DNA of 64,000 nucleotides from Escherichia coli. Its GTDB lineage: Bacteria; Pseudomonadota; Gammaproteobacteria; Enterobacterales; Enterobacteriaceae. The position numbers and the translations under genes are program-made. This document shows positions 53,290 through 53,652 of the stretch, piece after piece. The notes beneath the pieces are model-generated. The model was not told the origin of the DNA, searched no databases, and worked only from the letters and a program-made list of their open reading frames with translations. Position 1 is the first letter of the stretch, and each line of letters starts with the position of its first letter. The stretch lies in the NCBI RefSeq assembly GCF_002854065.1, contig NZ_CP024147.1; one strand, written 5' to 3'.

Positions 53290-53652
53290 ATGGATTACGA
53301 ATTTCTGCGCGATATTACCGGAGTGGTAAAGGTGCGTATGTCCATGGGGCATGAAGTGGTCGGGCACTGGTTTAATGAAGAGGTGAAAGAAAACCTGGCC
53401 TTGCTTGATGAAGTGGAACAAGCGGCGCACGCACTGAAAGGTAGCGAACGGTCCTGGCAACGGGCAGGGCATGAATACACTCTGTGGATGGACGGTGAAG
53501 AGGTGATGGTTCGCGCCAATCAACTGGAATTCGCTGGCGATGAAATGGAAGAGGGGATGAACTACTACGACGAAGAAAGCCTGTCGCTATGCGGCGTTGA
53601 GGATTTTCTGCAGGTGGTGGCGGCTTACCGTAATTTCGTGCAGCAGAAGTAA
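53290..53652 (+). CDS. yacL: UPF0231-family small acidic protein of unknown function
   Basis: Track ORF 53242..53652 trimmed to the ATG at 53290 ([36 protein letters not shown]..., 120 aa). Confidence 0.88.

Follow-up and report, generated by a model that had tools for sequence, protein, structure and literature searches.

An open reading frame (ORF) of 120 codons, running from ATG to TAA on the plus strand at positions 53290-53652, was analyzed in a stretch of Escherichia coli DNA of 64,000 nucleotides (contig NZ_CP024147.1), the whole of which is referred to here as the window. The ORF lies between acnB and a convergent speD gene and was identified as yacL, the gene for a small acidic protein which is probably an accessory component of RNA polymerase (RNAP) elongation complexes.

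Identity of the gene

The product matched Pfam family PF06062 (UPF0231) over residues 1-117 of 120 with 137 bits against a cut-off of 25, and the NCBIfam equivalog model NF003574 ("protein YacL") over residues 1-120 with 261.6 bits against a cut-off of 197. Its sequence is an exact match to the UniRef protein YACL_ECOLI (UniProt P0A8E5, YacL of E. coli K-12), and the literature on K-12 YacL therefore applies to it directly. In a RefSeq genome with 100%-identical DNA, yacL is annotated at the same coordinates (3691-4053 of its locus corresponding to 53290-53652 of the window), with acnB, speD, speE, yacC and cueO as neighbors. An earlier reading of this DNA, made from the sequence alone and called here the sequence-only reading, had proposed both the name yacL and the 120-residue ORF; the hidden Markov models of the family, the exact database match and the RefSeq coordinates all bear this out, and the product contains the acidic segment quoted at that time.

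Of 5426 complete E. coli genomes, 5425 contain the yacL locus, and the gene of the window occupies the orthologous position between acnB and speD, the two neighbors which it also has in K-12. The gene, its family and its association with RNAP have already been described, and yacL is an ordinary annotated core gene. At the DNA level, positions 53100-53720 reach 99% identity or more in only 135 of 5425 E. coli records, and identity to most records is 95-99%; the small number of close matches therefore indicates that the window derives from an E. coli lineage which is sequenced less often, despite a YacL protein identical to that of K-12. The 90% cluster which holds YacL has a Logan representative of 532 residues and mixes YacL (120 residues) with CueO (about 520 residues). 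The mixture probably stems from a chimeric gene call fusing the two proteins, a database artefact which affects cluster sizes.

Association with RNA polymerase

The evidence for a role in transcription comes from proteomics. YacL was reported to crosslink to the beta and beta' subunits of RNAP and to NusG, to co-elute with RNAP (r = 0.988) in amounts similar to those of NusG, and to be recovered with RNAP in reciprocal pull-downs; it was placed beside NusG on beta/beta', where upstream DNA exits the enzyme (Lenz et al. 2021, PMC8196013). Co-purification of YacL with RNAP was also observed in both earlier and later independent proteomics.

In the supplementary tables of that study (PMC8196013), beta K496 is crosslinked to YacL residues 62, 63, 64, 65, 72 and 74, beta K844 to residue 74, beta K892 to residue 14 and beta' K40 to residue 6, while residue 124, in the tag of YacL, is crosslinked to NusG K154. 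The YacL residues joined to RNAP (6, 14, 62-65, 72 and 74) all fall in predicted beta-strands of the model described below. Based on our own reading of these published tables, it is probably the beta-sheet of YacL, as modeled, which faces the polymerase. We take beta residues 844 and 892 to lie in the flap, beta' residue 40 in the zipper and beta residue 496 ahead of Rif cluster I, and these positions are consistent with the placement of YacL by the original authors.

The accession of sigma70 occurs two times in the crosslink table of the YacL pull-down, not at all in that of the NusG pull-down and 79 times in that of the RpoB pull-down, and NusA and NusG were present in all three tables (PMC8196013). 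Because sigma70 is scarce and NusA and NusG are present in the YacL table, our reading suggests that YacL sits on sigma-free, elongating RNAP carrying NusA and NusG. The crosslink list of the YacL pull-down is dominated by the pyruvate dehydrogenase subunits AceE, AceF and Lpd (PMC8196013, Supplementary Data 3), the genes for which lie just upstream of acnB-yacL. These crosslinks are probably abundant background and not a specific link, since the same proteins also occur in the NusG pull-down.

Predicted structure

The AlphaFold2 model of YacL, built from an alignment of 75 diverse members of the family (alignment A1), has a mean predicted local distance difference test score (pLDDT) of 86.5 and a predicted template modeling score of 0.79. 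The order of its elements is b1 (3-7), b2 (13-17), a1 (22-32), a2 (36-49), b3 (56-59), b4 (63-67), b5 (71-76), a loop, b6 (98-102) and a3 (103-118), and the three helices span 11, 14 and 16 residues. The loop between b5 and b6 is acidic, and residues 81-90 within it are predicted to be disordered (pLDDT below 50). The top covarying residue pairs, 17-109, 28-109, 13-113 and 73-113, join a3 to b2, a1 and b5. This is as expected if a3 packs against these three elements, a packing suggested by the covariation and not read from contacts in the model.

The sequence-only reading had called for a structure prediction and a search for structural homologs, and this revealed no confident homology to a characterized family. 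Foldseek comparison of the model with the PDB and BFVD returned nothing at E<=1e-3, with TM-scores of about 0.5 or lower, and sequence and profile searches of the PDB found no member of the YacL family with a solved structure. Matches to FtsB, centrin and Vipp1 in the PDB search were rejected as spurious, all having E above 0.009. No PADLOC match and no significant PHROG match were obtained. The nearest folds were the CdiI immunity proteins (5hkq_I and 4q7o_B) and PUR repeats (3k44_A), which resemble YacL in size and in combining a mixed beta-sheet with helices; between 80 and 97 residues could be superposed.

Acidity and conservation of the family

The protein has an isoelectric point (pI) of 4.45 and contains 25 aspartate and glutamate residues versus 10 lysine and arginine residues, giving a net charge of -15. 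Aspartate and glutamate make up 20.8% of its residues versus a mean of 10.7% (standard deviation 3.4, maximum 17.0%) across the 56 long ORFs of the window, and the description of YacL as rich in these two residues, already given in the sequence-only reading, was thus confirmed. The acidity is family-wide, the 75 members of alignment A1 (from which all conservation figures for the family are taken) ranging from pI 4.05 to 5.08 and from -7 to -25 in net charge. In alignment columns 80-97, which cover the acidic loop, basic residues account for 0-1%.

Scanned exhaustively with HMMER, 1.84 billion representative proteins yielded only 278 clusters of the YacL family at E<=1e-3, many of them fragments. 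Named members came from Enterobacterales, Pasteurellaceae, Aeromonas, Shewanella, Paraferrimonas, Vibrio and one metagenome-assembled genome (MAG) of the Pseudomonadales. YacL of the window is a single-domain protein of about 120 residues which carries the motifs SMGHE, W27, G60, YDxES and CGxEDF of this family. Residues G102 and D105 are invariant, M1, F5, W27, G60, C101 and F116 are conserved in at least 90% of the members, and the recurring motifs are S-M-G-H-E (18-22), Y-D-x-E-S (93-97) and C-G-[LIV]-[ED]-D-F (101-106).

The near-invariant C101 is replaced in four of the 75 representatives, and in three of these four a Gln takes the place of His21 as well (codons at 53350-53355 and 53590-53604). 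A hand calculation from these counts, in which phylogeny was ignored and which involves three lineages only, gave P of about 0.009 for the joint loss; a large Fisher value for the same pair is inflated by members of one cluster. By mutual information with average product correction (MI-APC), the pair ranks just 507th of 6555. Judged from the alignment, the joint loss may reflect contact between the His and the Cys, metal binding or a redox site.

Organization of the locus

The features of the locus are listed in Table 1. The sequence-only reading had placed a terminator between acnB and yacL, and one is present there: the hairpin at 53149-53178 is followed by TTTTTTATTT, and the 89-nucleotide segment in which it lies has a folding energy of -25.2 kcal/mol (z = -2.5). 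Transcription of yacL appears to start on its own, past this terminator. No canonical promoter was called for yacL by a consensus promoter scan, and the candidate extended -10 element would put the transcription start at about 53241. The presumed 5' untranslated region (UTR), taken as a whole, folds no better than shuffled sequences (z = -0.09), and no RNA family was found around yacL with Rfam. An in-frame ATG at 53242, which is used in some metagenome gene calls and would give a protein of 136 residues, was rejected as the start codon because the models of the family take M1 of the 120-residue form as their first residue, the Shine-Dalgarno-like sequence precedes 53290, and the candidate -10 element implies that transcription starts at about 53241. 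For the two neighbors, the start codon of acnB at 50518 is GTG, as mapped from the RefSeq annotation, and that of speD is seemingly TTG at 54484, for which the ORF and the annotated length match.

Table 1. Features of the yacL locus and of the gene cassette found upstream of yacL in two other genomes.
Feature	Coordinates	Strand	Remarks
acnB coding sequence (aconitate hydratase B)	50518..53115	+	Upstream neighbor; RefSeq annotation of identical DNA mapped to the window, and ORF listing
acnB intrinsic terminator	53149..53186	+	Perfect 9-bp arms 53149-53157 / 53170-53178, then TTTTTTATTT
Candidate yacL promoter, extended -10 type TGcGATAAT	53226..53234	+	From sequence only; weak -35 region
8-bp hairpin, presumed yacL 5' UTR	53247..53269	+	Arms GCAATGCG / CGCATTGC
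Shine-Dalgarno-like GAGGAA	53278..53283	+	6 nt before the yacL ATG; from sequence
yacL coding sequence	53290..53652	+	120 aa, UPF0231/YacL family, identical to YACL_ECOLI
Acidic loop, codons 81-96	53530..53577	+	Hardly any basic residues family-wide; residues 81-90 predicted disordered (pLDDT <50)
Most conserved motif C-G-[LIV]-[ED]-D-F, codons 101-106	53590..53607	+	C101 95% conserved; junction of strand b6 and helix a3
speED intrinsic terminator	53648..53685	-	Stem 53685-53658; T-run 53657-53648 opposite the yacL stop codon region (TAAATAAA)
speD coding sequence (S-adenosylmethionine decarboxylase)	53690..54484	-	Convergent neighbor; ORF listing and RefSeq annotation
Glycerate kinase / GntP permease / CdaR-type regulator cassette	Vibrio ichthyoenteri (L010) 1067-4770; Aeromonas (L009) 1039-4679		Directly upstream of yacL

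Between the stop codon of yacL and that of speD (53690) lies a perfect 11-bp inverted repeat (53658-53668 / 53675-53685), the folding of which scored z = -3.7 on the plus strand and -6.0 on the minus strand. The sequence-only reading had regarded this hairpin as shared by the two convergent genes. The convergent hairpin is indeed present, but a run of T follows it on the speD strand only, and the yacL side is a stem-loop without a U-tract; it is therefore a canonical terminator for speED and not for yacL. With such a stem-loop at their end, yacL transcripts may run into antisense speD or may rely on Rho. Antisense interference at the convergent yacL locus upon inhibition of Rho has been published.

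On the other side of acnB, a yacH-like ORF of 617 codons (48310-50163, minus strand) encodes a DUF3300 domain and a His/Asp-rich run (DDDDHDHHHHDDDNYHHHDGGH). Within it, a 96-bp unit is repeated in tandem 2.4 times (48543-48774) and encodes SASPEQRQ...QQRREAARERIQ units. In one RefSeq genome the annotation treats the corresponding gene as a truncated pseudogene.

Neighborhood in other genomes

The order lpd-acnB-yacL is retained in an Enterobacterales genome of 58% identity. In Vibrio, acnB lies 4 kb upstream of yacL and the two are separated by a three-gene insert (glycerate kinase, GntP and CdaR). The same insert is present upstream of yacL in Aeromonas, with no acnB within 5 kb. The neighbors of yacL are unrelated in Shewanella, in a Pasteurellaceae genome and in the Pseudomonadales MAG. 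In each of these six genomes the called yacL gene is flanked by intergenic gaps or by genes of opposite orientation, and these flanks suggest that yacL is a stand-alone gene.

Regulation

CyaR is a small RNA dependent on cAMP-CRP. The yacL mRNA was described as the top CyaR-bound transcript and as being repressed by it (PMC5861431). After the identity of CyaR had been confirmed by Rfam, pairing of the yacL mRNA with full-length CyaR or with its seed was evaluated by RNAduplex; the energies were no better than those of shuffled mRNA, and no site was located. In E. coli O157:H7, at the transition to stationary phase, yacL was induced and speD and aceEF were down, while acnB was absent from the list.

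Alternative explanations

The position of the gene raises the question of whether YacL has a functional tie to aconitase B, for instance as an iron-sulfur (Fe-S) or redox helper. Such a tie would draw on the adjacency of acnB and yacL, which is kept in the distant Enterobacterales genome (58% identity), on the Vibrio arrangement with acnB 4 kb upstream and a three-gene insert between, and on the single near-invariant cysteine of YacL, C101. The two genes are parted by a strong terminator, however, and the neighbors of yacL are unrelated in Shewanella, the Pasteurellaceae genome, the Pseudomonadales MAG and Aeromonas. Furthermore, YacL has one conserved cysteine where the Fe-S scaffolds IscU/NifU have three cluster-ligating ones, the list of genes induced on passage into stationary phase includes yacL but not acnB, and the readable heteromeric crosslinks in the table of the YacL pull-down lead to RNAP and NusG and none to AcnB. 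A link between acnB and yacL beyond adjacency is not supported, and we regard this explanation as very improbable. Slight as it is, that probability exceeds the one we grant to an orphan immunity protein of the CdiI type, or an antitoxin-type protein, neutralizing a nuclease, although CdiI proteins were among the nearest folds. The fold score is weak, PADLOC gave no match and PHROG no significant one, no toxin gene is adjacent (the neighbors being acnB and speD), and yacL is a core gene, found as one copy in 5425 of the 5426 E. coli genomes and so lacking variable presence, in a family spread over several gammaproteobacterial orders.

The likeness to PUR repeats would instead make YacL a PUR/Whirly-like binder of single-stranded nucleic acid, acting on the non-template strand or on nascent RNA. 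This is improbable too, but less so than the readings just weighed. The charge is wrong for such a binder, for which a basic or aromatic binding surface on the beta-sheet would be expected (net -15, pI 4.45), and is so throughout the family (pI 4.05-5.08); the conserved loops are essentially devoid of basic residues, and the similarity scores remain under confident thresholds. The least probable explanation, to which we attach almost no weight, is that YacL acts in the secondary channel like Gre factors or DksA. A commentary from 2012 speculatively lists YacL together with GreA, GreB, DksA, TraR and Rnk (PMC3616080), yet the AlphaFold2 model has no long coiled-coil finger, its longest helix being of 16 residues, there is no GreA/DksA Pfam match, and the crosslinks (beta K496, K844 and K892, beta' K40) are at the DNA-exit side by NusG, on the face of the enzyme opposite to the secondary channel.

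Proposed role

The proteomic data make it likely that YacL is an accessory protein of RNAP elongation complexes. Published work shows it bound near NusG, where upstream DNA leaves the polymerase, and it would touch the enzyme by its beta-sheet. The negative surface and the disordered loop with almost no basic residues could then repel or mimic nucleic acid at the upstream fork, and the acidic element might tune the re-annealing of DNA, the exchange of sigma or NusG, or the recycling of the polymerase. This repelling or mimicking mechanism, proposed by analogy, is put forward tentatively and is more doubtful than the association itself.

The analogy is to the delta subunit (RpoE) of Gram-positive RNAP, a small accessory protein with an acidic disordered segment which is thought to displace or repel nucleic acids and to aid recycling. 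YacL is likewise bound to RNAP, is acidic and has a disordered acidic loop. It differs in having no HARE-HTH/PF05066 match, and thus no sequence or domain kinship with delta, and in that its acidic element is the internal loop 81-96, of about 16 residues, whereas that of delta is a long polyanionic C-terminal tail. Other small acidic mimics which act on DNA- or RNA-binding surfaces are Rof/YaeO on Rho, Gp2 of phage T7 on beta', and region 1.1 of sigma70. YacL shares with them its small size and acidity, and rof/yaeO stands beside yacL among the genes listed as induced at the stationary-phase transition. In contrast, no homology of YacL to any of them was detected in Pfam, PDB sequence or fold searches, its site is beside NusG at the upstream DNA exit, and no inhibitory activity of YacL is known.

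Several points weigh against the proposed role. That the crosslinked residues of YacL form a single face is drawn solely from the secondary-structure assignment of the model, and the sigma-free state was deduced from counts in crosslink tables, which vary with abundance and sampling depth. A mimic-like or delta-like action is conjectured purely from charge and location, the acidic loop, at about 16 residues, is short beside the long tail of delta, and neither the Foldseek searches of PDB and BFVD nor the fold comparison gave a structural relative which could back any mechanism. Finally, the searchable literature contains no report of a phenotype or in vitro activity for YacL. The sequence-only reading, which could assign no function, was accurate to that extent, but it omitted the association with RNAP and NusG (PMC8196013) and the targeting by CyaR (PMC5861431).

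A more far-reaching version, which we consider unlikely and offer as speculation, would make YacL a subunit-like elongation factor specific to a clade extending from Vibrio to Enterobacterales. Acting as a nucleic-acid mimic at the upstream fork, its acidic loop would influence Rho-dependent termination, the re-binding of sigma or the coupling of transcription to translation by way of contact with NusG, the protein possibly being switched by redox or metal sensing through His21-Cys101(-Asp105).

The gene yacL is still a known unknown: in the best-studied bacterium, published proteomics finds its product bound to RNAP at about the abundance of NusG. If the action of YacL at the site where upstream DNA exits were established, the textbook elongation complex of E. 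coli would gain a further factor.
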